In this document: one piece after another, positions 3,571-61,056 of the stretch
Layout: the number at the start of each line of letters is the position of its first letter
How positions within the stretch are numbered: the first letter of the stretch is position 1
From: Eledone cirrhosa
Lineage: Eukaryota
Assembly: GCA_964016885.1 (NCBI GenBank)
Contig: OZ024743.1
Span: forward strand, 32,798,001 to 32,862,000
DNA length: 64,000 nucleotides
Direction: 5' to 3'
Translations under genes and position numbers: made by a program
The notes under the pieces: model-generated
What the model saw: the letters and a program-made list of their open reading frames with translations, nothing else
The model's database searches: none
What the model was told of the DNA's origin: nothing

Positions 3571-4094
3571 TGCAATAATAATACATTTTAAGGTTTAACA
3601 CTTCTGGATAAATTTTCTGAAATACTAAATTAAATCTTCTACTATTGTTAACAGCATAAAGGTCGTAAATGATTTAGAATCTAAAATTTAACAGTTTACC
3701 TGTCACTTGATCAAGTTTTACTTAATAATACCATATATTACAGATCATAAGCTAGTAGAATCAAACCTTATTCTAAAAAGATACAGAATTGACCATTCTA
3801 AAGTGGTATTATATGTATGGATGTTTACATTTAAGTATGTTTACGCATATGTATGAATGCGTGTGTGTGGCTGGAAAGAAATGAAGCTTGCATGCTCCAA
3901 TGAATTTAGAATAGTAATATACATGAACAGCAAAGTGTAAATGAACTGAGAGAGAAACTGGGCATAAGAGGGATCAGGTGGAGTGTGCAAGACATCCTTT
4001 CTCACTCTCTCTCTCACTCTTTCTCTCACTCTTTCTCTCACTCTCTCTCTCACTCTTTCTCTCTCTCTCTTTCTCCTTTATATATACATATGTG

Positions 4095-4962: not shown

Positions 4963-7900
4963 ACATGCACATCCATACAGTCTCACATGCATACACACAG
5001 GTCCATGCATGTCCATATGGTGAGAGTAGGTGGTAAAGCTACCTTCACATATACACAAAGGAAATATAGTATGTAAAAGGAAACTTCCGAGGTGATTAGT
5101 GGTTGGTTGATGGTACAATGTAGGTAGTACGTGGATATACTAGCTGAGAGGTGGGATGTGAACTTGGGGTCTCTGCAGTTGGATTCCCTGGTGAAGTGCA
5201 AGCGTTTGGGCAGGAGTGTAGGGTGGGACTTGGTCCAAGTACGGGTCACTGCACAGGCTTAAATGCTGAGTGGTTCAGGTTCCAGCACTTGGTAAGAGTG
5301 GATCATTAGCCTCTCAGATTGTCTGTTAGTTTGAGGCAGAGGTATGATTTTCATATATATGGATATATATGTGTGTATGCATGTGTATTGTACTTATGTC
5401 CAAATGTTGATATGGTAGGAGTTAATGATAACCACAATACACAACAATATCCAGCTTTATAGATAAATTTGTTTAGTATAGCGACAAATTCTAATGAAAT
5501 GGAAGTCTATTATATACTTTTTATCTATTAATTTAGGCTCAAGGTATTGTTGTCTATGCAAACAATACAATGATTTTTGCAAGATTAGAATGAATAGCCT
5601 TACAGTTAGCTCTTAAGGACTATAATCTCTCAATTGTATATTTCTGTGAAAGAAAATATTTTAAACATTATTGGTTTGTATATTTATATCTCTTGTCTCT
5701 AATACCGAATTGTGAGGTATTAACCATAGATATATGTGAATATCTATATATATTTAGCTTAGAAGTATTTGTGTTGTCTTTAGTTATAACATCATAAATG
5801 ACTGTAGCCACAGAAATAGCCATAAAAGTATTTTTTGATGATTCAGCCTTCTCATAACTATCAGATATATTGCTTATAAACTTGCACATTGATATAAACC
5901 ATCTTATGATGAAGACATTTTAATAGGGGTACAAATCTTTGCAGTAAGAAGAAGAACAGCTTGATTTTTGCAACACATTGCATTACACTAATATTCTATT
6001 ATAAAACCATTGGTATACAAAACAAGAACATATTGGAAAAATTACCAATATATTCATTGTTACTTTCATATAAATACTTTAAACAGGTAGACAAGCACTT
6101 ACATCAACATCGTCATCACTTAACATCTATTTTCCCTGCCAACAAGGGTTGGATAGGTCATCATTGAACAAGTTAGTACTTTATCAGAGCTACTGACCTT
6201 TCAAATAGGTCAGGAACCCACATCTCATTTACATTGTTCCAGTTCTCTATAGAGTAGACTGGCTGCATTTTATTATGACACCAGCACTTGGAAGGTGGCC
6301 ATGAAAAGTTCTCTTTACCCTTTATTTGGCAAGTTTTCTACAGCTGGATGCCTTTCCTATTTCCAACCACTTTACAGAGTGAGCAGTGTGTGTTTTGTTT
6401 TATCATGGCACCAGCACTAGGATGGGGGTATTAGTCATAGACTCAACTAAAGGGCCCTTTCTACCCTATGGGTGGAAATATGATGGAGAGGGTAAGAAGG
6501 ATGATAAGTACATCATGGGGAAGTGACAATAGTTGTGAACAAGTTCAATGTTGTATGTTTAACTTATTTGAGAAAACTTGTCTATCAAAATATATGTATT
6601 TGGCTATACTAAAGAGGAATATGTGTTGAGTCAAAAAGCATATATGTATGAAAGAAAAAAAAACCATACACACAGTCAAGTAAACTTTTGATCAATACCT
6701 TTACAATAATGAAAAACATTGATCTAATTGATTAATGTATTGAAGAAAAAAAAACACCTTATGTTTATGCTCATTTGTATATATACTATTTATTTCATAT
6801 TCTATTCATTTTGACCTCAACAGTGCAACATATCTTATGTATTTAAATATATTTTCAAACATTATATGTAAATTAGTACAAAAACACTTAATGATGATTA
6901 ATGTTTTTAATGATGCCTGGTTTTGTTGGGATAGCTCAACTTTGCCTTTCATTCCTCCTGGGTCAATAAAAAAAACAACTATATACAACAGTGAACTGGC
7001 AGATTTATTAAATACTTTGTGGCATTTGTATTCTGGGTTCAAATCTTGCTGTAGTTTACTTGGATGGTAGACTTAATCTGTCACCCAGTTTAACACTGCC
7101 ACATAGCCGTTGTGTGCTTTTGGTGGAACCCATTCTGTTGCAAGCATTTAAGCTAAATCTTTGGTTTCAGAATGTTTTTCACTCCCTCCCTCCATCCATG
7201 CTACTAGTTTTGGAGGCCCCTGAAAATGTTTATGGGCTTTGCCCCTCCCTCCTGACGAAATAATGAAAGAAAAACTGTATTATCATATTTATCCTATTTT
7301 ATAAAAGTTTATCAGCTCTTGACTTATGAGAAGTCAACTTAACCTCAATAGAATTTGATGTCTGATCTGAGAGGGACAAGAATGAATTAAATAATATATT
7401 TAGTCTCTACTCTCTAATTATTTGAAATATGGTGTAAAGAATAGGGTGGTGTTATCAGAAAAGTTAGAAAATCATTAATTAGCAAAATTGAAAGTGTATT
7501 GAAAGTGCAAGACCAGTACCAAAATCTATTGCAACAAAATCTTATTTACTTTAAAGGAAATCAAACAGTTCAAAACCCTTTAAAAAATCATATGTAGGAA
7601 ATATGAGATATGTTTGATATAAATAAAAGATAAAGACCAAAATATAATGAGCAAACAGTTTTGAGCTAAATATTTTATTCAATGTCAGTTTTGATTCATT
7701 TACATGATATATGAAATGAGTAGAAACATTCTAAAATGAGCACTTAACCCAATAGTATATTTTGCTATATAGTAAAAAAATAAAAAAAGCCATAGTACTA
7801 AGAGTTAGCATAGCCTATTCTAGTTTGTTAGCTTTGCATTTGAAAGCTTCCTACTTTAGTAATCTTTTAATTATGACCATCGTTGGATTACATTTTATTT

Positions 7901-13118: not shown

Positions 13119-14675
13119 ATGTATATAAAAAACTGACTTAATTAAGCTTCACCTCCAAATAAGAAGGGATCATACATTCTTTGGCAACCTAGACCCCTTT
13201 TTTTATTCTTTAAAAATATGTTCTTTTGGTATTTGTTTTCAAAACAGACCTGTATCTTCAAGTTAGGATTTTGCTGCAGTTTATATTCTCCATTATCCAT
13301 AAAGTTAGAAACATACCTTACATATGTACCTGTTATCTGTTAGCTATGCAATTTTGATTGATTTTAAAATGCTTAACCCAACCACTTTTAATGAAATATA
13401 CTTTATTTGAATTGGGTATTGGAGAATTTAGAGGAATTTACTAAAGTTATTCTGTCATTATGAAGATGATATTTGTAATATAACTTAACAAAAGTAAAAT
13501 TATATTGAATGATTTTAATTTAATATGGGCAGTTTTGTTTCACAGAAATAGTCAGTTTTTGGTTTGGTTGGATTTAAAAGGGTTAACAGTTTCATTTTCA
13601 TAGCAAGTGGCAAAGAGAAATACGCTGATGTATGTCAAATTTTATTAGTAGTTGTATGTGTATAGACATTTCATATTCTGTTTGGATGTAGGCATACTGT
13701 TTATAACTTACATTTTCAGGTGTGCGCTTTTAATGTTTTTATTCCACAATGCTTATATGTAGCAACTCAAGTAAAACCTAGAAGCACATGCAACAAATGA
13801 AAAGCCAAGAATTCCAAGTAAGCCATATATAATAAATTGATAAATGAATTATCAGTTTAGTATGGTAGACTGGTGGAATTGTTAGAGCATTGGATAGGAT
13901 GCCTTGCAATATTTGTCCCAACTATTTTAATTCTGAGTTCAAATCCCACTCTTGTCTGCTTTAATCCATCACTTGGTTAAACACTACCACCAGTTCCATT
14001 CTTTTGCAAGTATTTGTATCAGGTCTACCTTCCTCCCTCCCTCTCAATAGTCTCAGAGACCCTTACAAGAATCATCAGCACTGCCTTCTTTCTGACTATT
14101 TGATAAGAAAAATCACTTTTTCCATTAGTAGGATATTTTATATTACAAACAGAAGTATTAACTTGATTCTTGTGAATTGAGTAACACATTCAACAAAAAT
14201 TATTGACATGCCAGCATACATTGGATTATTTTACTGCAAAAGAAATTGTTATATCAAATAGTAAAAAATGATTGACAAACTAGATGATTCAAACAAGATA
14301 AACGACATTGAAAATTTACCATGTTACTTATGGGAAAACTCTAGATAGTAAACATGGCTATTTTGGTAACCAGTGAAAATTAGCAAATATATTAACACTT
14401 CTGACTTCAAACCACATGAAGCCACCCTTAATTCTATAATACAAAACTGCTTGTCTTAAAGTGTCGAAAAATATGTGTAAGGTTTTGTCAGCATTTTCAT
14501 TTTAGTTGACAACACTGACAATATACAATCATGTAAAATGTTTATATTTATATAAAGGTTCCTCATCATACTTTTATGTAAGAAACTTTGTAATGTTCCA
14601 AACACCAGCTTAATAATGATAAAGTTAGTTATATTATTAAATCCTTCCATATTTTTGATTATTTTCAAACTTATT

Positions 14676-14947
14676 TGAAAATAATTGTTTCTACTTTAGG
14701 CACAAGGCCAGCAAATACCCAGTGCATTACTGGTACTTTATTTTATCGACCCCGTATTGAAAATAATTGTTTCTACTTTTGGCACAAGGCCAGCAATTAC
14801 CCAGTACATTACTGGTACTTTATTTTATCGACCCCGTAAGGATGAAAGGCAAAGTTAACCTCGACGAGATTTGAACTCAGACCATAAAGGGACGTAACTA
14901 TGCTGGAAAGCATGGCGTCCGACTCTCTACTGATACTGCCAATCCAG
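14676..14947 (-). mobile_element. Tandem SINEs: near-full-length copy (14762-14947) plus a 3' fragment (14681-14756)
   Basis: Both match the SINE family; TGAAAATAAT occurs at all three junctions. Confidence 0.8.
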
Positions 14948-16906: not shown

Positions 16907-18025
16907 GCTTCATTGGATGTATACTTCAACTTGTCCTCATGGAGATGCATGGGTGTGGATGGGGAGGGGTGATGCATGCTATGTTTCAACTATCTATTAA
17001 AATTTCAGATATTGCAGTTTAATTAATGCTTGGAAAATTGTGTTCCAAAATGAAATATTTTAAGATTGAATGCCTTGAAATATACTATTATGTAGATAGT
17101 TTTAACAATTTTATCATGATTAAAGTGATATCAAACTAGTTAATACTGATGAGATGGTCAGCATACTAGTGATACTAATATGTAATATATATGTTATACT
17201 ATTTTTTGTAAATTTACTGAAAGATGTTGATGCATAAACACTGAATTATCTGTAAAGAAATTATTTTGATCATCATCATCATCATCGTTTAACGTCTATC
17301 TTCCTCGCTAGCATGGGTTTATATGGGAATTGTCCCACTTGAGGCAAGATTGGTTTTCTCACTTGTATAGGACTGTCTGTTATATGTCACTTACTGTCAT
17401 AGGCACCAAATAGAATGTGTTACCTGCAGAGGGTTCTTTCAGTTTCCATGTCTTCCTTCTCCAGACTGGCTTTTGTCTTGGTCCACCTAGTGCTTAATCT
17501 AAGGTCACTGACAATTAATTAATGTTAGAAGGTACATTCCTCCCCAGGAAAGGACATGGTGTGTCATTGTAGTAGAGCTAGTGTTGGATAGCAACTGAGA
17601 AGTGTAATTGTGAAAGTAATGGCATCTAAGTCTTATGGGTGACAAAAGGATGATGATGATTAGAATAGAAGTGTGATGCTATTGTATATAGGCAAAATTT
17701 ATGGGTAGGTGTCAATAAAGAGTCTCAATAAAATGAAAAGGTGTGGGGGGGGGGGGTCATCAATATTGATTCACTCCAATACTACTTAGAGTTCTGCTTT
17801 TTTTATAATATGCAATCATTTGGGTGACAAAAAGATTACATGTAGTGAAAAATGTTACACATTTTATCGTTTTAGCATCTCTGCTGAGTCATACATGTCA
17901 AACTCTTCATTAAACAATTTACTCAGGCCTTCCTTTCCATGTCTTACAGTAAAATTGATGTGCAAATAGATAGACATACACATTTGTTTTATTCATGTTT
18001 TCCTAGTCAACATTTCAATTATATA

Positions 18026-21000
18026 AACTGCAGCTCGGCAGAACATGAAACCTTCAGCCTACGAGATGATGGGCAGATATGGAAGTTTGTTAAGGCTGGC
18101 GAAACATGGAAAAGAGACACCAGCTGGTCTGAAAACACTGTACCCACAACAACTGACAATAAAGAAACTGAAAAAACTCTGGGAAACTAAATCAGAACAA
18201 CCTGCCATCCCCTGCACATAATCATAGACTGGAATCAAGGTACAAATTGTTGTCCTTGAATGCACGTAGTCTATGCAATAAGATTCATCTTTTTGACTCC
18301 TACGTCAAAAGTATCAACCCTGACTTCATTACAGTCATGGAAACTTGGGCACATCCCTTACTCTGTGATGGGGTTTTCAGCATGACTGACTACAACCTGT
18401 TTCGTAAAGACCGCATTAATCGTCGTGGTGGTGGTGTAATGGTCTATGTTCAGTCAAATCTGTCGGCAATTCCTTGTGCTGATTTGAACCAATCACAGCA
18501 GGAAGTTTTTTTCTGCGATATACGTATGACCATGTCAACACTGCTACTTGGAGTCGTTTACCATCCCCCAAATTACCATCAGGACACTCAACTTTGTGAT
18601 ATCCTCAGAGCTGCTGCCAGGAAGACAGCCACTTATGTTTTCATTGCAGGAGACTTCAATCACCCTGAGATTGACTGGAAAACCTTTCGTTGGCCGCCAA
18701 GTGCAAATGACTTCCTTGAGCTAGTGCTGGACTCGAGTTGGTCCCAGGTGGTTACCTCTCCAACGAGAGGTGACAACCATTTGGACCTACTCGTCACCAC
18801 TACTCCTGAAACGGTCATTAGTGTTACTGCTGAGGAACCTTTAGGTGACTCTGATCATGCTATGATGATTGCCAATCTATCCCTCATGGGCAGTAACAAG
18901 AACCACAACTATCTCCAAACTGATCACTTTGACTGGAATAAAGCAGACTGGAACTGTTACTGCACCGAGTTGCAACGGCCTAACTGGCTTTAGTTCTACG
19001 ACTCTGGAGATGTCAACACTGTACTCCAGAACATCCTGAGCTCAATATGGACAGCATGTGCAGCATCGGTGCCACGTAAGCGGAAAAAACATCCCAAAAG
19101 TGCAATTTGGGAGACTGCAGCAGTCCATCTTGCCAGAAAAGAACGGCGCAATGCTGAACGTGAGTACAAACTTCACAAATCAGACATTAATAGGAAGAGG
19201 CGAACTAGATCGTCCAACCACCTCAAACAGGTGACAAAAAAGACAGTGCTTCAATTTGAGCAGCTCATAGCAACCAGCCCTGACAGTAAGGTGTTCTGGA
19301 AGTATGTTCACTCAAACAGAGGCCTCACTCTCCAGTTGGTCCTCTTCACAATCCCCACACAAGCCAGGTTACTGACGACCCCAAGGAATGCGCAGAGCTC
19401 ATTGCTGAATGCTATGCAGGCATTTTCACTATTGAAGACCAGAGTGTACCATCTCCACCACCTATGACACCGGACTCTATTACAACCATGGAATTTACAC
19501 CTGCAATGCTGCGACGTCACCTGAAAAATAAACGCAACCATGCCTCTCCTGGTCTTGATGGTGTTACGTACCTGCTTCTTAAACGTGGTGGGTACTTGCT
19601 TCTGCACCAGTTATCACGCTTCTTCCAATTCTGTCTGAACAACAGTGCTACTCCAGAACAGTGGAAAACTGCCAGTGTCATTCCTCTGTTCAAAAAGGGT
19701 GATCGCACATCACCTGTGAACTATCGTCCAGTCAGTCTTACTAGTTGCATCGCCAAACTGATGGAATCCTGTGTCAGAGAAACACTTTGGAACTTCTGGA
19801 ACTCTCAGTCTTATCCGGCCCTCGCAATTTGGATTTATCCCCAACTCCAGCTGCTGTGATCAACTTATAGAGTTTCTTGAGGACATCACACGGATCACTG
19901 ATGGCGGCTCATGGGTGGATGCTGTTTACCTTGACTTTGCGAAAGCCTTCAATTCTGTGCCACACAAAAAGCTTATGGCAAAACTCTCTGCAATGGGTGT
20001 GAAGGATGATCTTTTTAACTGGTTGAAGTCCTTCATTCTCAGTCGAAGAGAGGTAGTCACGGTTCTGGGACAGCATTCCTCACCATATGAGATGTCATCT
20101 GGTGTACCACAGGGATCTGTTCTTGGCCCCCTTTTGTTTGTGGCATATATTAATGACATAGATGCCAACTTAAAGAATGCCACAGTACTAAAGTATGCAG
20201 ACGACATCAAGCTGTACCTTGAGATAAAAAGGACAGATCCTGAACACTATAGATCTTGCTTGCAGTCTGACCTGGACACAATGCAACAATGGATCTCAGA
20301 CTGGCAACTCAAGCTAGCTGTGGACAAGTGCACCACCATGCATTTTGGGAGTAAAAACCCAGCGTCCACATACTCCCTCCACAGCACTAATATCAAGAAG
20401 TCTTCTTGTGAATGTGACCTTGGCATTACGGTCAGCAGCGATTTGCATTGGACGAAGCACGTCTCTAAAATTGTCAAGAGGGACGAGGGTGTCTTAGCAT
20501 CACTCAGCAAGACCTTTGTCAGCCGCTCTCCAGATATCTATTTAAGGCTGTACATGGCTATGGTGCGACCACACTTAGAATTTGCATTACCAGTCTGGAA
20601 CCCCTATCTTGCTCAGAACATTGACCGCCTGGAAACTGTTTAGAGACGTGCAACCAAGCGAATACCCTCCATCAGGCATCTACCATACTCTGAGCACCTT
20701 GCTTCCCTGGGCATGGATACATTGAAGCTCCAACGCCTGGCAACTGACTTGGTAAACACCCACAAAATTGTTAACCATGTTGCCAACAACAACCCTGAGT
20801 ACCTTTTTGATTTCCATGTGTCTAACACACGTGGACATGCCCACAAAGTAAGAAAACAGCACAGGTCCCATGACTTTCGGAAACATTTTTTCATGCTCAG
20901 AGTTGCTGAAGCATGGAACAAACTACCTGCATCAGTTGTTAGCTGTCGAGACACTGCATCCTTTAAGGCCTCCATGCTTCCCAAGATCCGCCAACACTAC

Positions 21001-21128
21001 AGCTAACACATACACACATGTACTTCCCTGACATTTGTGTATTATTCTATGTACTATACATACACCTTTGACGAGTTGTAGTGCACCTGAGCACTTTACA
21101 CAATAATTTCATTATTATTATTATTATT
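18026..21128 (+). mobile_element. CR1-clade LINE, 5'-truncated within ORF1, with (ATT)n tail
   Basis: ORF1 C-terminus ending 'LGN*' at 18190; ORF2 APE and RT; CR1-type C-terminus (TRGH..K, FF..RV..AWN.LP); 3' UTR ending in (ATT)6; candidate TSD ATTATATA at 18018-18025 and 27194-27201. Confidence 0.9.
18247..21006 (+). pseudogene. CR1 ORF2 (APE endonuclease + reverse transcriptase), disrupted
   Basis: LNARSL, ETW, GDFN, LDL and SDH (APE); SPGLDG, YRPVSLTS, YLDFAKAF, GVPQGSVLGP and YADD (RT). In-frame TAG stops at 18991 and 20641 and frameshifts near 19320 and 19800. Confidence 0.92.
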
Positions 21129-21341
21129 GAATGCCATGGTTGACGGAGGCTCGGCTCTGTAAGGTATAGTAATTTTTAACCGTTAAAACAATTGTAAATT
21201 GTTTAAAACTTGAACCAAATTGTTGATAAAGACACCCTCCTCCTCGTGAGAGGGGTCTTTCTGTCCGTTATTTGGCCCTTCGGGGTTAAATAACCAGTTA
21301 TTGGGGTTTTGTACCCAAAATTTCATTTTAAACAAAAAAAC

Positions 21342-23429
21342 ATGGCTACGAAAAAGAAATTTCATACGTCACTCCCACTCATTCCGTCTTCTTCTTCCTC
21401 AATCATCACTACAGCAGATAGAAGATTGTCTCTCTCCCTCCCTTCTTTAAATGTGTCTCTCTCCCTCCCTTCTCTTTCGCAAGCGACGAAAGAAAAGAAA
21501 AGTCTCGTGCAAAGCGTGCAAGGTTTCTCCACGACGACGACGACAGCGACGAAACAGGTGTGCGGGAAATACGAAAACCCAGTTCATTCGTCTGACGTCA
21601 GGAATAATAGCAGTAGCAGCCGTAATAACAACAGCAACAGTGACAATGAAAACAACAGTAGCAGCCGCAACAGCATCACCAGCAGCATAAACAACAACAG
21701 CATTAGCAGCAGCAACACCAACAACAACCACAGCAACAGCGGCGGAGGCAGTAGTCGTAGTACCTGCAGCAACAACAAAAGTACCAGCAGCTCTGACGAC
21801 AACAACAACAGCAGAGAAAAACCAATCTCATTTGCAGGTATTGCGAAAAACTTGGAAACAATCCTCATAACAAATGAGGAATTAGAGGAAGCGAAGAAGA
21901 TGGTGACAAAGAACGGACACCGAGCAATCTGCAAGGCAGCGAAAAATTTTTTCGAAACCCAAGAGCACTGTACGGTCACGTACCGTACAGTAAGTACAAA
22001 ATCCCGTAGGGTGGAAAGAGCCACAGAGGCCCAAATACAAAAAGCCTTGGGGTCTGTGTGGCAGAGGAAAACGCACATCACCCGAGGCAAAAAATACGCC
22101 ACCGTAGACGTACTTTTTGCCACACCCCAGGAGGCAAAGGCCCAATCAGTAGTGACCCTAAGGAGCGAGGAAATGGTGTTGGTGCCCTCCTACTGCGGGC
22201 AAAAAATTGTGAGGGTCAAACTGACCCACGTCCCCCCCGGAATGACCCCTTCTTGGCTGGCCGCGTCTGTCCTCGTCGGAATCGAGGACAAAACAACTGT
22301 ACTGCAAGTACAGAAAAAAGTAAGAGAAGATTGGGTCGGCTCCTCCATTGAGATGCTAATCCAAACCAACCAGGAGTGCATCGAAGCTATCCCGGATGTG
22401 ATAGACTTCGATAACGGCACTCAACTGCCCATAAGTGTTGAGGGCAAACGCCCGAAATGCTTTCGCTGTGGATCGAAGACTCACCTCAGGGCCTTCTGCA
22501 ACGAGAAGACCCTGAGAAAGGAGAAAACCCCCCTCCTTCCGAATCCGGCTCCACGGCTACCAGCAACAGGACAAGCGGCAACCAGGAACGATAGGTCCGT
22601 GGCACCCATACCCACTCCACGGAAATCAAAGACAGCAGCAGCAGTGGAAATATTAACAACAACAACAGCAATACCAAATGCAGCTGCAAGAGAGACTCCA
22701 GTGCAAACATCACCAACAACAACAAGTGAAAGAGTGGAGCTGGTACCCCTCCCCGACCTTACAGAATCAGACATGGAGTGTGAGGTGGGAGAGGGATGGC
22801 AAAAGGTCGCAAGAAGGCACAAACGCAGAAGCAGCGCATCGTCGCCTTTGAAAAGGGAGGAAAGAAATGAGAAAAGGGTAAAGTCTACTGCAAAGAGACC
22901 CACAGCAGCAACACCACCAACACCATCACCACCCACACCAGCACCACCATCACCACCGGCGACAACTCCACCGCCAACAACACCTTCAACACAAGCACCA
23001 ACATCGCAAACACAACAACAAAACACACACACCCAGCAACAACGACAAGAAAATAGCAGAACCACACCCCACCCCCATAAAAACAAATGCACGGCAATAA
23101 ATACACACAACAAGAAACTAATGACTTACATAATTGAACACACAGACATTTCACAACAGGACTACATAATACCAGCACCAATCAAAACGCCAACTAACAT
23201 AAGACTGCTAAAAATAGCACAGAAACAATACACAAATATTAAAACGAAATTCCCCAACGCAGTTGGTGATTTCAGGGACCTAGGAGGAACCATCAATCGA
23301 AGAGTATACTCAGACATTCTCTTAGAAGAGCCGACGACCAGCCGAAGGGACGATTCAACGGTCCCTTCACCAGACGATCAAGTGAAAAGGGATGTAAAAA
23401 CCATCCCTCCTCTACCAAAAGTACGGTAA
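21342..23429 (+). CDS. Tx1/L1 ORF1 protein (nucleic-acid chaperone, CCHC zinc knuckle), 695 aa from the first ATG
   Basis: ATG in AAACATGG context at 21342; open to TAA at 23429; CFRCGSKTHLRAFC (CX2CX4HX4C); S/N-rich N-terminus and P/T/Q-rich C-terminal third. Confidence 0.9.
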   Translation: MATKKKFHTSLPLIPSSSSSIITTADRRLSLSLPSLNVSLSLPSLSQATKEKKSLVQSVQGFSTTTTTATKQVCGKYENPVHSSDVRNNSSSSRNNNSNSDNENNSSSRNSITSSINNNSISSSNTNNNHSNSGGGSSRSTCSNNKSTSSSDDNNNSREKPISFAGIAKNLETILITNEELEEAKKMVTKNGHRAICKAAKNFFETQEHCTVTYRTVSTKSRRVERATEAQIQKALGSVWQRKTHITRGKKYATVDVLFATPQEAKAQSVVTLRSEEMVLVPSYCGQKIVRVKLTHVPPGMTPSWLAASVLVGIEDKTTVLQVQKKVREDWVGSSIEMLIQTNQECIEAIPDVIDFDNGTQLPISVEGKRPKCFRCGSKTHLRAFCNEKTLRKEKTPLLPNPAPRLPATGQAATRNDRSVAPIPTPRKSKTAAAVEILTTTTAIPNAAARETPVQTSPTTTSERVELVPLPDLTESDMECEVGEGWQKVARRHKRRSSASSPLKREERNEKRVKSTAKRPTAATPPTPSPPTPAPPSPPATTPPPTTPSTQAPTSQTQQQNTHTQQQRQENSRTTPHPHKNKCTAINTHNKKLMTYIIEHTDISQQDYIIPAPIKTPTNIRLLKIAQKQYTNIKTKFPNAVGDFRDLGGTINRRVYSDILLEEPTTSRRDDSTVPSPDDQVKRDVKTIPPLPKVR

Positions 23430-23464
23430 GTGGTCTTTCCCATCTTTTCCACTCTATTTTAAAC

Positions 23465-26400
23465 ATGACCTCACTCAGAATAGGCAGCATAAATGCGCGT
23501 GGCTTGGGGTCGTCATGGAAGCAGGGTCACCTGCTCAACGACCTCAGGTCACTAAACATAGATGTAGTGGCCATCAGCGAGACCAGAATCTCCGAGGCAC
23601 GGGCCTTCGCACCGATCTTCGGCGGCTACGATGTGTACGCATCTCCCAGCCGTCCTGGATCGGGTGGAGGAGTTGCTGTGCTTTTTCGGAGAGGTTTGGA
23701 TCTCGCCATACGGGCCATCTTCCTGGACCCAGAGGGTAAGCTGGTGGTGCTGGACGTGACCAGCGGAGACGGGCAAGCTTTCAGGCTAGTGGCCGTCTAT
23801 GCCCCGACAGGAGCAGGGCGGCCTGATTTCTTCCGGCGTCTGGAGACCTTTCTTGGAACGTCCCGCTCTTTAGTGTTAGTGGGCGACTGGAACGGGATCT
23901 TAGATGCACGCTGGGATTGTGTGGGATTAGCGGATAGGGGTGGAGGGTGCAAGAGCCTCACCAACCTGCTCAGGCGTTTTGAACTGTCTGACAGGTACCG
24001 ATTGGATTTCCCGAATGTGCCAATGTGGACTTGGACAAACCGCATAGGGTCATCCAGATCATATCTAGATAGAGTATTTTGTAGGGAAATAGATAGGTCT
24101 AGCATAGGCTGTCCACAATTCAAGATAGTCAGCTACACGGACCACAAATTCGTGACCTGTGTGCTTGACTTAGATAGGCTTCATAGACGAGGACCCGGCT
24201 ACTGGAAGCTAAACGCGTCCTTACCAGCGCGCAAGGCCTACAGAGACCGGATTAGCGAACTAGTTAAGCGGGCGTTGACGGGAGCCATCGTCAACAACAA
24301 GTGGTGGTTTGCTCTGAAAAGAGCGATCAGAATAGAATCGATTAGGTTTAGTAAGGCTTTAGCAATAGAGAAAAATAGAGCAGAGGGAGAACTAGTTAGA
24401 AAATTAGACGAGGCGCTTAGCAAAGGCATTGCGACCGACGTGCTTGCGGCGAAATTGGCCCTTGACCAATTCTTCAATGCAAAGCACGAAGGCTGCGTTG
24501 TCAGAGCTAGGGTGCGTGCTCTCAGACACGAGGGAACGAAAGCCGTTCAATGGGCCCGAGTGGCGGAGGCGCGTCGTGGTAACAAAGCCACGATCCGGTC
24601 TTTGGTGGACCACGACGGGCGCATGCTACTCGATCCCGGGCAAATGTGTGAAGCTTTTCAGCGACACTTCGCTCAGCTGTTCGGGGGCAGCGGGGGGCCG
24701 GGTAGAGGGATGGACTTTAGTGTCTACCTCGACGGACTGCCGCGGCTCTCGGCCACTGAGGCGAAGTGTTGCGAAAAGCCGATAACAGCCGCTGAAGTAC
24801 GGGAGGCAATGACTGGCTGCACAAGGGGTAAATCGCCTGGTTTGGATGGTCTGCCCTATGAACTTTACGTACAGATGCCAGACTTGTTCGGAGGCCTCTT
24901 GGCGGACGTCTACTGCAACTGGCAACAGAACGGGAGAATTCCCAGTTCTGTGAGCCGAGGAGCGGTGGCACTGCTGAGAAAGGATCCGAACAAGGGGGAT
25001 AACATAGACAATTTCCGGCCCATAACTCTGCTAAACACAGAGTTTAAGATTTTGGCCAAGGTGCTAGCAAAGAGGTTGGCGCTTGTCGTTGGTGGTCTGG
25101 TGGGAGAGGCACAGACATGCGCCATTCCCGACAGATCCATCCACGACAACCTCCACCTCATGCGATACATCGTAGAGAGGGTAGCTAGGGAACCTGGCAC
25201 GGGTGGGTCCTTGATCAATTTAGATCAGTCGAAAGCTTTCGATAGGGTCGACCATCGTTACCTAGCGGCAGTCCTGAGGGCGGCTGGCTTTGGGCCCGTC
25301 TTCAGAGGCTGGATCGCTGCCATGCACAGCGACATCTGCTCTGTGGTGAGAGTGAACGGTCACCTGTCGGAACCGTTCAACATCATGCGCTCGGTCCGCC
25401 AAGGATGTCCCCTCTCGTCCCTCTTGTACGTATTGACGCTCGAGCCATTACTGCACAAACTGGAGACGTTGAGGGGAGTCCCGCGCGAACTAGGATGCGG
25501 AAGATCCGTGTCAGCATATGCGGACGATGTCACCGTAGTGGTGTCGAACGCCAAACACATCGAGGCGATCGGCACTACACTAAGAGAATACGAAGCGGTG
25601 ACAGGAGCAATGATCAACCAGGAAAAGTCAGTGGGCCTGCAGCTCGGCACCTGGAGAGGCAGGTCCATGCCGTCCAACAGCGTCGTCGGGCGCTGGACGG
25701 ACGGACCGGTTAAATTGCTAGGGGTCTGGTTCGGTCCGGACCTCCAGACGGACAAAAACTGGGACGAGGTGACGAGCAGGGTGGCTTCTCTCACCCAGAA
25801 ATGGGCGGAGAGGAAGCTATCCCTGAAAGGTCGAGCGGAGGTGGCTAACGCGTACATCGCGTCTGTCATCTGCTACCGCCTAACCGTCGTACCTTGTCCT
25901 AAGCCTCGCCTGACTGCGCTGGAGCGTTTGCTCTTTCGCTTTTTGTGGAAGGGACGTGCTCCGATGGTCAGGCGGTCCATCTGTTGTCAACACCCGCTAC
26001 GTGGAGGGCTGGGCATGCCGTGGCTGATGATGCGCAGGCACGCGCTCAGGCTACGACATCTCCACATCTTCCTCGACGGTGATCAGGTGTGGTCGCCGTT
26101 TGCTAGACGCGTTTTTCCCCAGCTCGTTTCCTTGACGGAGCTGCAGTCCTGGGTCAAGCGAAGACCGAGAGGGAGCGCCTGGAGACTGGAATGTCTTCAG
26201 GCGCTCACAGCCCTCGACCAATCGGGTAATGTGATCGGTGGAAACTCCACCTCGGCGTTCTATAGAGGATTAGTGGAGGGGAAGAGCGACGACGTACTTG
26301 GGGAAACTCTAGGCGTCGACGAAAATCAACTAGCCAATCTCTTCGGAAGAACTTTCGGGCCAGGGCCTATGGACAACTTCCAGAAATCTCTGGCCTGGCA

Positions 26401-26884
26401 GTGCTACCGAGGAGCCTTGCCAGTTCGGGATAAACTCTACAGGCATGGAGGTGCCGTCAGCCGGGCATGTCCGAGATGCGCGCAGGGCGACGAAACCGTC
26501 CTGCACGCACTCGTCCAGTGTCCGAAAATTGCTGACTTGTGGGTTTATGTCGAACACCTGCTGTCGCGTTTAGGACGGATCCGGCTATCATCTGAGTCCA
26601 TCGTGAGGATTGCCCCGCCCTCCTCCTTTAGCCGGGAAGGGCAGGCAGTTTTTATCTGCCTGGTGGCCATGGTGAAAGAGATAGTATGGTGGACACGTTT
26701 GAAAGGGCTGAAGACGAGCACTTACCTCTTCGGTGATGCTCTGATTGACTTTTTCAAATTTCATTTGAAAAGGAAAATCAGAGTAGAGAGGGAAGTGCTC
26801 TCTTCCCAGCATTTTGTTGAAAGATGGGTGAGAGAAGCAAGAATGGCCCGAGTGAATGGGCCTACTCTGAGTATATATCTGTAA
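23465..26884 (+). CDS. Tx1/L1 ORF2 protein: APE endonuclease, reverse transcriptase, C-terminal zinc finger (1139 aa)
   Basis: SINARGL, ISETR, VYAP, GDWN, YLDR and TDH (APE); SPGLDG, RPITLLN, LDQSKAFDRVDH, RQGCPLS and AYADD (RT); CPRC..ETVLHALVQC (zf-RVT type). No stops or frameshifts. Confidence 0.96.
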   Translation: MTSLRIGSINARGLGSSWKQGHLLNDLRSLNIDVVAISETRISEARAFAPIFGGYDVYASPSRPGSGGGVAVLFRRGLDLAIRAIFLDPEGKLVVLDVTSGDGQAFRLVAVYAPTGAGRPDFFRRLETFLGTSRSLVLVGDWNGILDARWDCVGLADRGGGCKSLTNLLRRFELSDRYRLDFPNVPMWTWTNRIGSSRSYLDRVFCREIDRSSIGCPQFKIVSYTDHKFVTCVLDLDRLHRRGPGYWKLNASLPARKAYRDRISELVKRALTGAIVNNKWWFALKRAIRIESIRFSKALAIEKNRAEGELVRKLDEALSKGIATDVLAAKLALDQFFNAKHEGCVVRARVRALRHEGTKAVQWARVAEARRGNKATIRSLVDHDGRMLLDPGQMCEAFQRHFAQLFGGSGGPGRGMDFSVYLDGLPRLSATEAKCCEKPITAAEVREAMTGCTRGKSPGLDGLPYELYVQMPDLFGGLLADVYCNWQQNGRIPSSVSRGAVALLRKDPNKGDNIDNFRPITLLNTEFKILAKVLAKRLALVVGGLVGEAQTCAIPDRSIHDNLHLMRYIVERVAREPGTGGSLINLDQSKAFDRVDHRYLAAVLRAAGFGPVFRGWIAAMHSDICSVVRVNGHLSEPFNIMRSVRQGCPLSSLLYVLTLEPLLHKLETLRGVPRELGCGRSVSAYADDVTVVVSNAKHIEAIGTTLREYEAVTGAMINQEKSVGLQLGTWRGRSMPSNSVVGRWTDGPVKLLGVWFGPDLQTDKNWDEVTSRVASLTQKWAERKLSLKGRAEVANAYIASVICYRLTVVPCPKPRLTALERLLFRFLWKGRAPMVRRSICCQHPLRGGLGMPWLMMRRHALRLRHLHIFLDGDQVWSPFARRVFPQLVSLTELQSWVKRRPRGSAWRLECLQALTALDQSGNVIGGNSTSAFYRGLVEGKSDDVLGETLGVDENQLANLFGRTFGPGPMDNFQKSLAWQCYRGALPVRDKLYRHGGAVSRACPRCAQGDETVLHALVQCPKIADLWVYVEHLLSRLGRIRLSSESIVRIAPPSSFSREGQAVFICLVAMVKEIVWWTRLKGLKTSTYLFGDALIDFFKFHLKRKIRVEREVLSSQHFVERWVREARMARVNGPTLSIYL

Positions 26885-27143
26885 ATTAAAGGTGGAAAAC
26901 TGGGAGAGGGCACTTGCCTTGGTGGTCAGGGTCATTGTGGCTTTTTACTGGGCTTTCACCACAAATGTCCCTCCGAAGTCTCCCCCCTATTGGGGAATTT
27001 TTCATTGTTATTTTCATTGTTATTTTTGTTACATCCTCTGTTTTTGTTTTTTACACGCAGAAATGCCCATTTGTACCGTCCTGCATTGTCCTGCACTGTC
27101 CTTAATGTCTACTTTATGTAAACCCTTGTGGTTAATAAAGAAA

Positions 27144-27145
<2 letters not shown>

Positions 27146-27196
<51 letters not shown>
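27146..27196. repeat. (ATT)17 microsatellite, the distal part of the split CR1 tail
   Basis: Perfect ATT run directly after the Tx1-like element. Confidence 0.9.
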
Positions 27197-27201
<5 letters not shown>

Positions 27202-43514: not shown

Positions 43515-43547
<33 letters not shown>

Positions 43548-43563
43548 GTACATATGTATATAT

Positions 43564-43595
<32 letters not shown>

Positions 43596-43604
43596 TTATG
43601 TATA

Positions 43605-43635
<31 letters not shown>

Positions 43636-43818
43636 GTACATATGTATATATATATGTATATATATATATATATATATATGTACGTGTATATATATATATA
43701 TGTATATATATATATGTACGTATGTATATATATATATGTATATATATATATGTGTATATATATATGTATATATATATATGTGTATATATATGTATATATA
43801 TATATGTGTATATATATG

Positions 43819-43849
<31 letters not shown>

Positions 43850-43858
43850 GTATATATA

Positions 43859-43903
<45 letters not shown>

Positions 43904-44109
43904 GTATATATATATGTGTATATATATGTATATATATATGTGTATATATATGTATATATATATGTGTATATATATGTATATATGTATATATATGTATATA
44001 TATATGTGTATGTATATATATTTGTGTATAAATATACATATGTATATTTATATATATATATATATGTACATATGTATATATATATGTATATGTACATATG
44101 TATATATAT

Positions 44110-44158
<49 letters not shown>

Positions 44159-44276
44159 TATATATATGTATATGTATATATATATGTACATATGTATATA
44201 TATATATGTGTGTGTGTATGTATATATATATGTGTGTGTGTATATATGTGTGTGTGTGTATATATATATACACACA

Positions 44277-44330
<54 letters not shown>
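43511..44330. repeat. About 820-bp compound (TA)/(TG) microsatellite
   Basis: Near-continuous purine-pyrimidine alternation; it accounts for the Y/I/M/C-rich ORFs in the track. Confidence 0.95.
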
Positions 44331-44334
<4 letters not shown>

Positions 44335-59099: not shown

Positions 59100-60864
59100 C
59101 ATATATACACAAAGAGAAAGAGAGAGAGAGGGGGAACATGTAAGAGACTCAGGTGCAAAAACCACTGCTATATATTAGATCTTAGAAAATTGTGTAAAAT
59201 GCCCCTGTGGACAGAAGAAAGTTACCCAATTTTCTAGGCTATTATTTATAGGAATCGGTTGTATTTGTAGTTATTTGCGTCTGAGTTTCTTACATTTTAT
59301 ATGAGCTTCATAATTCTTCAGTGCTTCACTTAGAAAATTCTATGCTTTACATACACTATATGTATATATATATATATATATATAAATAAACTATTTTGAA
59401 ATACGTGACATTATATATGTATATGTGTGTGTAGTGATTGTATATCTAATATAACATATATACATATGTGTAACCACCTAAACATGGTTTGCCATCAGTA
59501 CATTGCAATCTTTAGGTGATTGATTGTTGTTAAAGGCAGTCAACTGACAAATACTTAATGCCAGTATTCTCACAAATATTTGTGTATCTATTCAATGCAA
59601 ACCATTTAGTATTTTTCAGTAACTTCATAGAAATTTATGTACACTGCTCGTATTTATATACATTATGTACATGCATTTATATTTATATATTCATATACGT
59701 ATATAAATAAATATGAAAGCTCACATATGTGCATGATTGTGTGCACTCTTACACTCATATCGGCATATACCAATCTCCTATGTGAATAAAAATTGTGTTA
59801 AGTGTCTATCAAATATGAAATTCATAGAAAATCATCAAAATTTCATTGATAGTGCCTACTGTGTTATTTGTTATAGCAGTAAATTTAGAATTCTTTACTG
59901 CCGTATATATCTTGGAAATATTTTCAGTGCTACAACAGTTTGGTATACAGTATAAAATATTAGTCATGCGTTATGTGTCTGTTACATATCAGTTGTTAGT
60001 TTTCTCTTACTTAGGTATATATATTTTTTTTTCCATAATCTCCCCCCACCCCACCTCATTTTCTTCATAAGGAACAATGTAATTATTTTCATTTCATTTC
60101 GATCTATTTTTCTCCTTTCCATTTGAAATTACAATCATTTCCTCTTTATACTTATCTCTCATTTTTCTCCCACATGTTTCTTATACCTCTAACTTCTACT
60201 CATTTGCTTTATACATTTAGCTAGTTTTCTCTTTACTATCCATATATATTACTGTTTAATAGGAAAGCAAATATAATTGAAATGTAAAGTACATTCTATG
60301 TGAGTTGAAAAATATCATATTTCATTTCATCTGTCCAAATTCACATTAAGCAAAGTAACTATTGACCAGCACATCTCCAAAACATACGTAACACGCAATA
60401 AATGACTATGTGACATTTAAAATATGTAGATTATTACTCAAATATTATTCATTACCTCTTCCTTAAATTTGATGCTACTTACTACATCAAATTAAGATCA
60501 CTTATTTAATTATTAATGTTTTGGTATTTTCTTCTAGTTTTCCTATTTTTTCATTATTATTATTCACTCTTACTCTTATTTTATAATGTCTTATCTCATC
60601 CTTTTTTTGCCAGCTTCTTACAGAAGCCATTCCTTGGTACATTTCATTCTTTCTATTTCTTTATAAACTGTTTCTTTAAGCAACATTTTTTGAGGTCATT
60701 CAATCTATTAGTTTTGTTTTCTCCATCTTCATTATTTCTTTCCTTATCAACTATCATTATTTTCATTCATCCTTACGGGGTCGATAAAATAAAGTACCAG
60801 TAATGTACTGGGTAATTGCTGGCCTTGTGCCTAAAGTAGAAACAATTATTTTCATATATACCTA

Positions 60865-61056
60865 GGCGGTGGATTGGCAGTATCGGTTGAGGGGCGGACG
60901 CTATGCTTTCCAGCATAGACTTACGGTCCTTGCCATTCTGAGTTCAAATTCCGCCGAGGTTTACTTTGCCTTTCATCCTTACGGGGTCGATAAAATAAAG
61001 TACCAGTAATGCACTGGGTAATTGCTGGCCTTGTGCCAAAAGTAGAAACAATTATT
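60865..61056 (+). mobile_element. Full-length tRNA-derived SINE, preceded by a 3' fragment at 60765-60850
   Basis: GGCGGTGGATTGGCAGTATCGG A-box head, GAGTTCAAATTCC B box, Meta-like domain, AGAAACAATTATT end. Confidence 0.88.

Follow-up and report, generated by a model that had tools for sequence, protein, structure and literature searches.

Site-specific and microsatellite-specific LINEs

Site-specific LINEs tend to be rare, their targets (rRNA and snRNA genes, telomeres) being few. Tx1L pairs a large ORF1 with an APE-RT ORF2. The Dong / R4 clade is defined by a single ORF with a restriction-like endonuclease downstream of the reverse transcriptase (RT) and no APE. Human L1 ends in poly(A), nicks DNA at loose TTTT/A sites, and encodes an ORF1p of the Transposase_22 type, as the Pfam naming indicates. 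To our knowledge, neither the I factor nor other microsatellite-tailed LINEs are restricted to their tail repeat as a target.

Microsatellite-specific insertion is described for Kibi and Koshi, Tx1-clade elements of teleost fish, and for crocodilian Tx1, with (TC)n, (TTC)n or (TTCC)n/(TTTC)n as targets (PMC4494074; PMC3812793). Dong, of the R4 clade, is reported to target (TAA)n in silkworm, mosquito, and freshwater snail (PMC3812793). Tx1L of Xenopus laevis is described as site-specific and inserted in another transposon (PMC4494074), and the Drosophila I element as ending in TAA repeats (PMC3747384). A repeat annotation of Octopus vulgaris counts L1-Tx1, CR1, and Dong-R4 elements among the recently active ones, and its text makes no mention of ATT or AAT (PMC13282606). 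In a literature search confined to papers as distinct from repeat libraries, no (ATT)n- or (TAA)n-specific L1 or Tx1 element was found, and three terminal strings of the LINE and SINE described below matched no paper in a literature text search.

The locus analyzed here lies in a 64,000-nt stretch of Eledone cirrhosa DNA (the window), and all coordinates are positions within it. Like Kibi, Koshi, and crocodilian Tx1, its central element is an APE-type, two-ORF LINE of the L1/Tx1 group with microsatellite-specific insertion; unlike them, it targets the AT-only triplet (ATT)n, resides in a genome whose repeat content is not that of a vertebrate, and belongs to one of three families that together number thousands of copies. 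It shares its microsatellite target with Dong but differs in having two ORFs and an N-terminal APE in place of a single ORF with a restriction-like endonuclease, which rules out membership of the Dong / R4 clade. Tx1L is likewise a site-specific member of the same group with a large ORF1 and an APE-RT ORF2, although it inserts at a single site of a DNA transposon rather than into a simple repeat. The triplet-repeat end that replaces poly(A) recalls the I factor and other microsatellite-tailed LINEs. Judged from sequence, the family would join the microsatellite-targeting LINEs as a new member specific for (ATT)n.

Anatomy of the composite

The window holds a nested series running from a 5'-truncated CR1-like LINE through (ATT)6 and an intact 6,017-bp two-ORF LINE to (ATT)17, with the following features.

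18018–18025, no strand: ATTATATA, upstream copy of the short duplication around the CR1-like insertion (identical 8-mer at 27194–27201)
18024–21110, + strand: CR1-like LINE copy, 5'-truncated and decayed (Pfam Exo_endo_phos / Exo_endo_phos_2, RVT_1)
18247–18993, + strand: CR1-like APE ORF (Pfam Exo_endo_phos / Exo_endo_phos_2)
19771–20643, + strand: CR1-like RT ORF (Pfam RVT_1)
21107–21128, + strand: TTTC(ATT)6, landing site of the 6,017-bp LINE, formed by the microsatellite tail of the CR1-like element itself (TTTC(ATT)1–7 in 29/29 other copies)
21129–27145, + strand: intact full-length L1/Tx1-group LINE, 6,017 bp (copies of the 5' 41-mer, full-length relatives)
21129–21341, + strand: 5' UTR of the 6,017-bp LINE (GAATGCC start right after ATT in 59/59 full-length copies)
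21342–23429, + strand: ORF1, 695 aa (translation; Ser/Asn-rich start, two predicted RRM-like folds, CCHC knuckle, Pro/Thr-rich end)
22458–22499, + strand: CCHC zinc knuckle CFRCGSKTHLRAFC, ORF1 aa 373–386 (read from sequence)
23465–26884, + strand: ORF2, 1139 aa (Pfam domains; human LINE-1 ORF2p match)
23528–24094, + strand: ORF2 APE endonuclease (Pfam PF03372, E 3e-14)
24995–25726, + strand: ORF2 reverse transcriptase (Pfam PF00078, E 1e-28)
26384–26542, + strand: ORF2 zf-RVT (Pfam PF13966, E 7e-8)
26885–27145, + strand: 3' UTR, AATAAA (27134–27139) then a GAAATC end without poly(A) (same end at 30/30 loci)
27146–27198, + strand: (ATT)17, serving as tail and as the target's downstream half (TRF, 17.7 copies, 100%)
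27194–27201, no strand: ATTATATA, downstream copy of the CR1-like insertion's duplication (identical 8-mer at 18018–18025)

The original prediction described a CR1 tail running directly into the 5' end of a full-length second element, and both points hold: TTTC(ATT)6 at 21107–21128 passes without a break into 21129, where the 6,017-bp LINE begins with GAATGCCATGG, and its ORF1 (695 aa) and ORF2 (1139 aa) are open. It also had the CR1 copy inserting first, inside a short repeat that brackets the whole composite. ATTATATA does stand at 18018–18025 and 27194–27201, outside both elements, with the CR1-like tail split by the 6,017-bp LINE, and 29/29 other CR1-like copies carry a TTTC(ATT)1–7 tail of their own, confirming that order. 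Because homology to those copies begins at 18024, the duplication is counted as 6–8 bp.

The 3' end of the 6,017-bp LINE is GGTTAATAAAGAAATC (27130–27145), followed by (ATT)17. The absence of poly(A) and the (ATT)17 are as first read, but the TC that had been assigned to a following TC(ATT)17 is the element's own end (AAATC in 30/30). The proposed 20-bp target site duplication TC(ATT)6 falls with it: the upstream TC is the CR1-like end (30/30) and the downstream TC the end of the second element (30/30), so that each belongs to its own element and the shared string is not a duplicated target as such. Most of the (ATT)17 was probably added at insertion, since it exceeds every CR1-like tail seen (1–7 units).

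In contigs of four sequencing runs, where the repeat is collapsed, none joins the CR1-like tail to the downstream flank; no empty allele is therefore seen, and the pre-insertion state of the sites is a reconstruction. A target duplication is unreadable in a pure microsatellite, and the shares of ATT that come from the target and from insertion are not separable.

Coding capacity and affinities

ORF2 finds its closest solved relative in human LINE-1 ORF2p, which aligns over residues 5–854, endonuclease and RT included (E 1.6e-52); R2 proteins match at E 1e-21 or weaker among PDB sequences. On the strength of PF03372, PF00078, and PF13966 together with this best PDB match, ORF2 is assigned by sequence to the L1 group (L1 plus Tx1 clades). 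A database search with ORF2 returned 44 matches, the best at 79% identity and the next at 39–44%, and its Atlas matches are generic RT/endonuclease clusters only. In metagenomes, 83 of 224 pattern-matched stretches encode a relative; 80 loci were kept, almost all at 21–32% identity over the best segment. An ATT tail is found in 0/14 inspected metagenome relatives and poly(A) in one, which is uninformative for lineage.

ORF1 matches no Pfam family, Transposase_22 included, and in this as in the missing poly(A) the element differs from human LINE-1. A match to MBD (E 0.017) was taken as chance, and ORF1 residues 160–420 have no database homolog. All three sister-family ORF1s share the first three positions of the CCHC knuckle (C, C, H) without change; two also have the final Cys, where L258 has Ser. 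An AF2 model of ORF1 built from 4 sequences (pLDDT 60) contains two beta-alpha-beta-beta-alpha-beta units, and its top Foldseek rows are two-RRM proteins, weak matches with E 0.009 or more; a single-sequence fold (pLDDT 33) was unusable. ORF1 tentatively resembles the kind that combines RRM with CCHC. ORF1 variants with RRM plus CCHC are described as consistent with Tx1 (PMC5203782); the "Tx1-like" of the original prediction stays a candidate assignment. Target-specific insertion, common but not universal in the Tx1 clade, characterizes 59/59 full-length copies, all of them in (ATT)n.

The family is abundant, young, and likely active. An exact pattern search with the 41-nt 5' end, used to count 5' ends genome-wide, gave 1,350 matches (722+628), and the reversed control gave 0. 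At the 3' end, 40 matches were scored, with 99–100% identity over 196 nt. Among 39 copies found through the 3' end, 29 are full length at 95.7–99.7% identity; of these 29, 19 keep the 1139-aa ORF2, 12 keep ORF1, and nine keep both.

Insertion junctions in ATT runs

The full-length sample comprises 59 copies (30 via the 5' end, 29 via the 3' end), the 5'-end samples being the first matches on one chromosome-sized contig. An ATT run precedes all 59, in one orientation and one register (ATT|GAATGCC). Copies found by the 5' end follow runs of 3–27 perfect units (30/30; median 8), with at least 4 units in 29/30, and full-length copies found by the 3' end follow (ATT)6–30 (29/29). One further 3'-end-found copy (1/39) begins at nt 44, again after an ATT run. 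Sampled 3' ends read AAATC(ATT)n in 30/30, with AAAGC and AAAAC as variants elsewhere in the family, and downstream runs are 1 to 24 units long. These flanks bear out the predicted (ATT)n targeting. The class to which Kibi and Koshi belong has been delimited by the same microsatellite flank in more than 20% of copies (PMC4494074); here the same repeat stands at both ends, in 59/59 full-length copies at the 5' side and 30/30 at the 3' side, far above that figure.

The remaining 3'-end-found copies are more varied. Clear 5' truncations at nt 4007, 4632, 5062, and 5814 have ATT-type runs upstream in 4/4, in varying registers. Copies L079 and L095 (2/39), of complex structure, lose similarity without an ATT run at that point; in L062, L091, and L094 (3/39) the sequence continues into a diverged, sister-like ORF1, so that no junction can be read.

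ATT flanking of the family is far above chance. Before a random oriented position, (ATT)4 occurs at a frequency of 1.7e-4 and (ATT)2 at 1.1e-3 (241 kb of background). Selection against genic insertions is generally expected, so insertion might have been random with only copies in harmless ATT runs retained. We find this scarcely credible: copies at 98–100% identity have had little time to be purged, and despite the rarity of (ATT)4, 59/59 copies sit in ATT runs in one orientation and register.

The sequences upstream of the runs include own-family tails, sister-family tails, SINE tails, (CTT)n/(ATC)n borders, other repeats, and unique DNA. Head-to-tail arrays of 2–4 units, spaced at 6,035–6,257 bp, account for 25/100 5' ends among the matches listed, and a same-family tail lies directly upstream of 21/60 sampled copies. 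Both observations would suit an account in which (ATT)n is simply the element's own tail, and template jumping or unequal exchange yields tandem copies, and with them the upstream runs, without any choice of target. That account is very improbable, given that the ATT run abuts non-family sequence in the other 39/60 copies, that runs also precede the 4/4 clear 5'-truncated copies, and that the upstream run in the window is the tail of the CR1-like family. Upstream runs cluster at 6–10 units, and part of the upstream ATT could therefore arise during integration.

CR1-like and SINE tails

The CR1-like element combines an APE (PF03372/PF14529) with an RT and a TTTC(ATT)1–7 tail, and the label "CR1" is provisional. 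The window copy is 5'-truncated, as 29/29 other copies extend upstream of 18024, and its coding region is split into ORFs of 248, 132, 131, and 290 aa; a full-length relative has a 438-aa Cys/His-rich ORF1. TTTC before ATT is the family's own end in 30/30 copies, and the tails of the 29/29 other copies lead into unrelated DNA.

The original prediction had suggested the TC-ATT junction of CR1 tails as the possible target. The window copy itself occupies such a site, as does sister-family copy L316, inserted in a CR1-like tail. We nevertheless give specific targeting of this junction practically no credence, because a CR1-like tail precedes 0/59 other copies of the family and the element is absent from 29/29 other CR1-like tails.

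At the 5' side, the CR1-like family shows 0/27 break points abutting an ATT run, some of which may be rearrangements rather than true 5' ends. An ATT tail alone is therefore no explanation of targeting; in having the tail and no ATT restriction, the CR1-like family behaves like I-factor-type LINEs. One SINE copy, likewise ATT-tailed, has an ordinary 17-bp TSD.

Sister families

Two sister families have 5' ends unrelated to that of the window family and the same ATT behavior. Their ORF2 C-terminal parts are mostly 63–92% identical to P0002. A sister 3' motif occurs 4,718 times, with a TC(ATT)n end in 24/30. The first sister 5' end occurs 7,225 times, and 30/30 sampled occurrences follow ATT/GTT runs; the second occurs 1,926 times, and 30/30 follow ATT|GG. 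Over the three families, 119/119 full-length 5' junctions abut ATT runs.

A proposed model of insertion

In the explanation that we favor with high confidence, the 6,017-bp element is an intact two-ORF L1/Tx1-group LINE, the sampled junctions of all three families lie in (ATT)n (with L079 and L095 breaking off away from an ATT run, and L062, L091, and L094 contributing no junction), and insertion likely proceeds by target-primed reverse transcription. The endonuclease's predicted nick falls in the (AAT)n strand, and the (AAT)n end that it frees would pair with the (AUU)n tail of the element RNA. Reverse transcription would then start within the (AUU)n tract downstream of AAUAAA, and such priming would explain both the missing poly(A) and the variable downstream run of 1–24 units. 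The fixed 5' register may come from microhomology or from a capped 5' G. Since ATT runs remain at both ends of the element, an insertion would restore the target that it has used, in keeping with the arrays and nests observed.

In this model, the endonuclease rather than tail pairing alone would select the site. Conversely, a non-specific endonuclease might leave the choice entirely to pairing between a nicked (AAT)n end and the (AUU)n tail, an idea that gains from the identity of tail and target repeats and from the 1–24-unit downstream variation, as expected of pairing in different registers. We regard it as unlikely. The (ATT)n-tailed CR1-like family and the SINE insert at varied sites (0/27; 17-bp TSD), an indirect argument in that other enzymes are involved, and the 119/119 full-length junctions in ATT would also need second-strand cleavage inside the repeat.

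Few microsatellites are known as targets of APE-type LINEs, and with this family an AT-only triplet would join them; the family is also a natural resource for studying repeat recognition by an APE fold. Its specificity is as strict as that of rRNA, snRNA, and telomere LINEs, yet it numbers at least 1,350 5'-complete copies, with thousands more in the sisters. The family would account in part for how ATT microsatellites and LINE/SINE nests arose and grew in this genome. Annotators of the genome should take LINE units arranged head to tail between ATT runs as serial insertions, not segmental duplications.

A possible shared landing pad and the opposite-strand element

We tentatively extend this model, with somewhat less than even confidence, to (ATT)n.(AAT)n as a shared and self-renewing pad. 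At least three L1/Tx1-type families would use it in the ATT sense, their APE reading the triplet in register; an unrelated, possibly Dong-like lineage would use the opposite strand; ATT-tailed CR1-like LINEs and SINEs would seed new pads; and each insertion would recreate two targets. If true, a shared pad would free site-specific elements from the limit that usually holds down their copy number, so that 5'-complete copies could exceed ten thousand.

The opposite-strand element was seen at locus L048, where the same runs hold, in opposite orientation, another element with (AAT)n flanks. A search of solved structures returned no relative for it, and its one Pfam match is zf-RVT at E 0.006, below the cut-off. 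It carries a CCHC and a PD..D motif, a combination that we take to be Dong-like, and on these sequence motifs the element may be Dong-like.

Structure and affiliation of the nested elements

The L1-type element, a LINE with two ORFs, begins at window position 21129, the base directly after the TTTC(ATT)6 end of a CR1-like LINE copy.

Features of the composite (window coordinates)
18018-18025 and 27194-27201: ATTATATA, just beyond both ends of the composite
18024-21128: CR1-like LINE copy; ORFs for an APE endonuclease (18247-18993) and for an RT (19771-20643) (Pfam)
21107-21128: TTTC(ATT)6, 3' end of the CR1-like copy
From 21129, 213 nt: leader of the L1-type element
21342-23429: ORF1, 695 aa; residues 373-386 form a CCHC knuckle, CFRCGSKTHLRAFC
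Between ORF1 and ORF2, 35 nt: spacer
23465-26884: ORF2, 1139 aa
Last 261 nt, to 27145: 3' UTR, ending AATAAAGAAATC without poly(A)
27146-27198: (ATT)17, directly 3' of the L1-type element

Pfam domains in ORF2 comprise Exo_endo_phos (E 3e-14), RVT_1 (E 1e-28) and zf-RVT (E 7e-8). Human LINE-1 ORF2p is the best relative among solved structures (E 1.6e-52, residues 5-854), and R2 proteins rank behind it (E 1e-21 or weaker). Judged by its ORF2 sequence, the element is a member of the L1 group. Pfam assigns no family to ORF1, and a search for database homologs of residues 160-420 found none. The CCHC positions are kept in three ORF1s from sister families (relatives with similar ORF2 and other 5' ends), except that one of the three has Ser in place of the final Cys. 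An ORF1 model built from these four sequences (pLDDT 60) contains two beta-alpha-beta-beta-alpha-beta units, and its top Foldseek rows are two-RRM proteins (e.g. nucleolin, NONO/SFPQ, Raver1, hnRNP A1 UP1; only at E 0.009 or weaker). Knuckle and model weakly suggest an ORF1 of the RRM plus CCHC kind, which one source treats as consistent with the Tx1 clade (PMC5203782).

The coding region of the CR1-like copy is broken across several frames. The copy is also 5'-truncated, as sequence upstream of 18024 is shared by 29/29 other copies; one full-length relative encodes a 438-aa Cys/His-rich ORF1 in this upstream portion. The family's own tail is TTTC(ATT)1-7 in 29/29 other copies, with the TTTC end in 30/30. 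The family (loci L100-L159) is very young and numerous: 1,859 candidates at the 3' end, 1,153 in the 5' region, and many copies identical over 211 nt. AT- or TA-rich sequence follows the tail in 17/29 copies, a hint that the element may prefer TA-rich sites.

All sequence statements of the original prediction are correct: the junction at 21129, the lack of poly(A), (ATT)17 and ATTATATA on both sides. Its order of events also holds, in that the CR1-like element entered with a 6-8 bp duplication, ATTATATA, and the L1-type element then inserted into its ATT tail. The proposed 20-bp target site duplication, TC(ATT)6, falls away, as the upstream TC is the CR1-like end (TTTC in 30/30) and the downstream TC the L1-type end (AAATC in 30/30). 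Target duplication may well account for some ATT units but is illegible in a pure repeat. Most of the downstream (ATT)17 was probably added during reverse transcription, because 17 units exceed every CR1-like tail seen (1-7).

A young family flanked by ATT runs

A genome search with the 3'-terminal 196 nt yields 40 scored matches of 102 candidates at 99-100% identity, and the first 41 nt have 1,350 exact matches (722 forward, 628 reverse; reversed control 0). Full-length copies occupy 29 of the 39 other loci found via the 3' end (95.7-99.7% identity); among them the 1139-aa ORF2 is kept in 19, ORF1 in 12 and both in 9. The family is abundant and likely still active.

Tabulation of genomic flanks from both termini bears out the prediction that the family targets (ATT)n. 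The element's 3' end reads AAATC, then (ATT)n, in 30/30 loci, window copy included. Among copies found via the 5' end, the upstream run ends exactly ATT|GAATGCC in 30/30, with 3-27 perfect units (median 8; at least 4 units in 29/30). Among those found via the 3' end, (ATT)6-30 precedes 29/29 full-length copies, and an ATT run likewise precedes a copy starting at nt 44. Four of four clear 5' truncations (nt 4007, 4632, 5062, 5814) follow ATT-type runs in varying registers. Three loci (L062, L091, L094) have no readable junction, the copies continuing into diverged ORF1-like sequence, and two of complex structure (L079, L095) have no ATT run where similarity stops. The background chance of (ATT)4 before a random oriented position is 1.7e-4 (241 kb). 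There is strong support for a lineage of L1/Tx1-group LINEs specific to (ATT)n.

The narrower suggestion that the target is the TC-ATT junction of CR1 tails finds no counterpart in the other copies sampled from the family: a CR1-like tail lies ahead of the ATT run in 0/59 copies outside the window, and 0/29 other CR1-like tails continue into an L1-type element. A same-family tail precedes the run in 21/60 cases; elsewhere the run borders on sister-family or SINE tails, on (CTT)n or (ATC)n, on other repeats or on unique DNA.

In the L1-type family (L031-L099) the lengths of upstream runs concentrate between 6 and 10 perfect units, with a median of 8-9, and those of the GGCGACC sister family are longer (median 15); the upstream run may therefore be partly made at insertion, or the target may have a minimum length.

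ATT-tailed elements without ATT 5' flanks

Two ATT-tailed elements of the same genome serve as controls. In the CR1-like family 0/27 5' break points adjoin an ATT run, though rearrangement may explain some of them. The second control, a SINE with a tRNA head and an (ATT)n tail, often lies close to ATT runs, yet 0/13 heads are flush with one, and one copy carries an ordinary 17-bp duplication. An ATT tail alone is thus insufficient for ATT 5' flanks, and mainly for this reason the specificity probably resides in the L1-type element's own machinery, with the endonuclease as the most likely determinant.

The SINE (~185 bp) ends CCTTGTGCCTAAAGTAGAAACA(ATT)n, lies at window 14675-14838, 60766-61050 and other positions (also L013, L015, L121), and forms clusters separated by ATT. 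When its last 22 nt are anchored at the tail against the last 22 nt of the LINE, 15 positions match, a score reached by 0/2000 shuffles; free local alignment of the ends is not significant (290/2000). The LINE lineage may be the carrier of this SINE.

Sister families and arrays

The 3' ends GCCCTTGTGGCCAATAAA(G/T)(A/G)AA occur 4,718 times in the genome (control 0). The ORF2 C-terminal parts of these copies are mostly 63-92% identical to the window ORF2, and TC(ATT)n terminates 24/30 sampled. Two additional 5' ends, both followed by ORF1-like coding sequence, were first seen on the 3' side of ATT tails. The tails ahead of one belong solely to the L1-type family (L018/L021/L029); those ahead of the other belong either to that family (L007/L017/L023) or to a sister family (L253, L258). 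One of the two 5' ends has 7,225 occurrences, preceded by ATT/GTT runs in 30/30 sampled; the other has 1,926, with an ATT|GG junction after 3-24 units in 30/30 and 1/30 located in a CR1-like tail. Given ATT flanks at all three 5' ends, three families with unrelated 5' leaders share one landing site and orientation.

Twenty-five of the first 100 5' ends listed belong to arrays in which two to four units follow one another head to tail at a spacing of 6,035-6,257 bp, and nests of the LINE-ATT-SINE-ATT-LINE type are common. Serial insertion into tails predicts both arrays and nests; template jumping could be an added source of arrays.

In the most abundant sister family (contig G000 C1), many 5' ends lie 0.3-1.1 kb apart (e.g. 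47415688/47416796/47417804), a spacing suggestive of arrays in which ATT links short derivatives that are non-autonomous or carry internal deletions.

Proposed insertion mechanism

From the observed anatomy we infer the individual steps. An (AUU)n end is expected for the RNA, because AAUAAA stands 6 nt ahead of the run. The endonuclease would nick the (AAT)n strand, freeing an AAT-3' end that would pair with (AUU)n and prime cDNA synthesis. Such priming would bypass any poly(A) and yield downstream runs of 1-24 units. Second-strand cleavage would likewise fall within the repeat, and microhomology or a 5' G could explain why full-length copies invariably join at ATT|G.

Relation to known elements and neighboring repeats

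Dong, which has the same microsatellite target, is an R4-clade element with a restriction-like endonuclease, a feature that the L1-type element lacks (Pfam). Excerpts of two sources name as microsatellite-targeting LINEs Waldo (ACAY), Mino (AC), Kibi (TC), Koshi (TTC), crocodilian Tx1 families ((TTCC)n/(TTTC)n) and Dong (TAA) (PMC4494074, PMC3812793). In the literature searched, no L1/Tx1 element specific for (ATT)n or (TAA)n came up; the family may be catalogued in Repbase/Dfam. A repeat annotation of Octopus vulgaris gives L1-Tx1, CR1 and Dong-R4 as LINE groups with recent activity, and neither ATT nor AAT appears in it (PMC13282606). (ATT)n is a new target inside a known LINE class, not a new class.

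Another retroelement sits in the ATT microsatellites in opposite orientation (L048:1567-2382, + strand of the locus). Bordered by (AAT)8 and (AAT)16, it ends ...AAATGCAACTGT(AAT)n. In reverse complement, this 3' end also comes after ATT tails in L012 and L030, and in L035 it is found upstream. The element's 216-aa ORF carries a CX2CX8HX4C motif, then RPDIILKD...LIDMSVPID, a pattern that we take to resemble the restriction-like endonuclease found in R2/R4 (Dong-like) elements; the only Pfam hit is a sub-threshold zf-RVT, and a PDB search gave no match.

One sequencing run labelled as another organism (X6) contains long contigs ~99% identical to the L1-type element at low depth (6-10); a closely related organism, a labelling error or carry-over could be the source. 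The window is unusually rich in simple repeats (170 TRF rows in 64 kb) and includes a (TA)n array at 43515-44331 of ~408 units with 82% matches.
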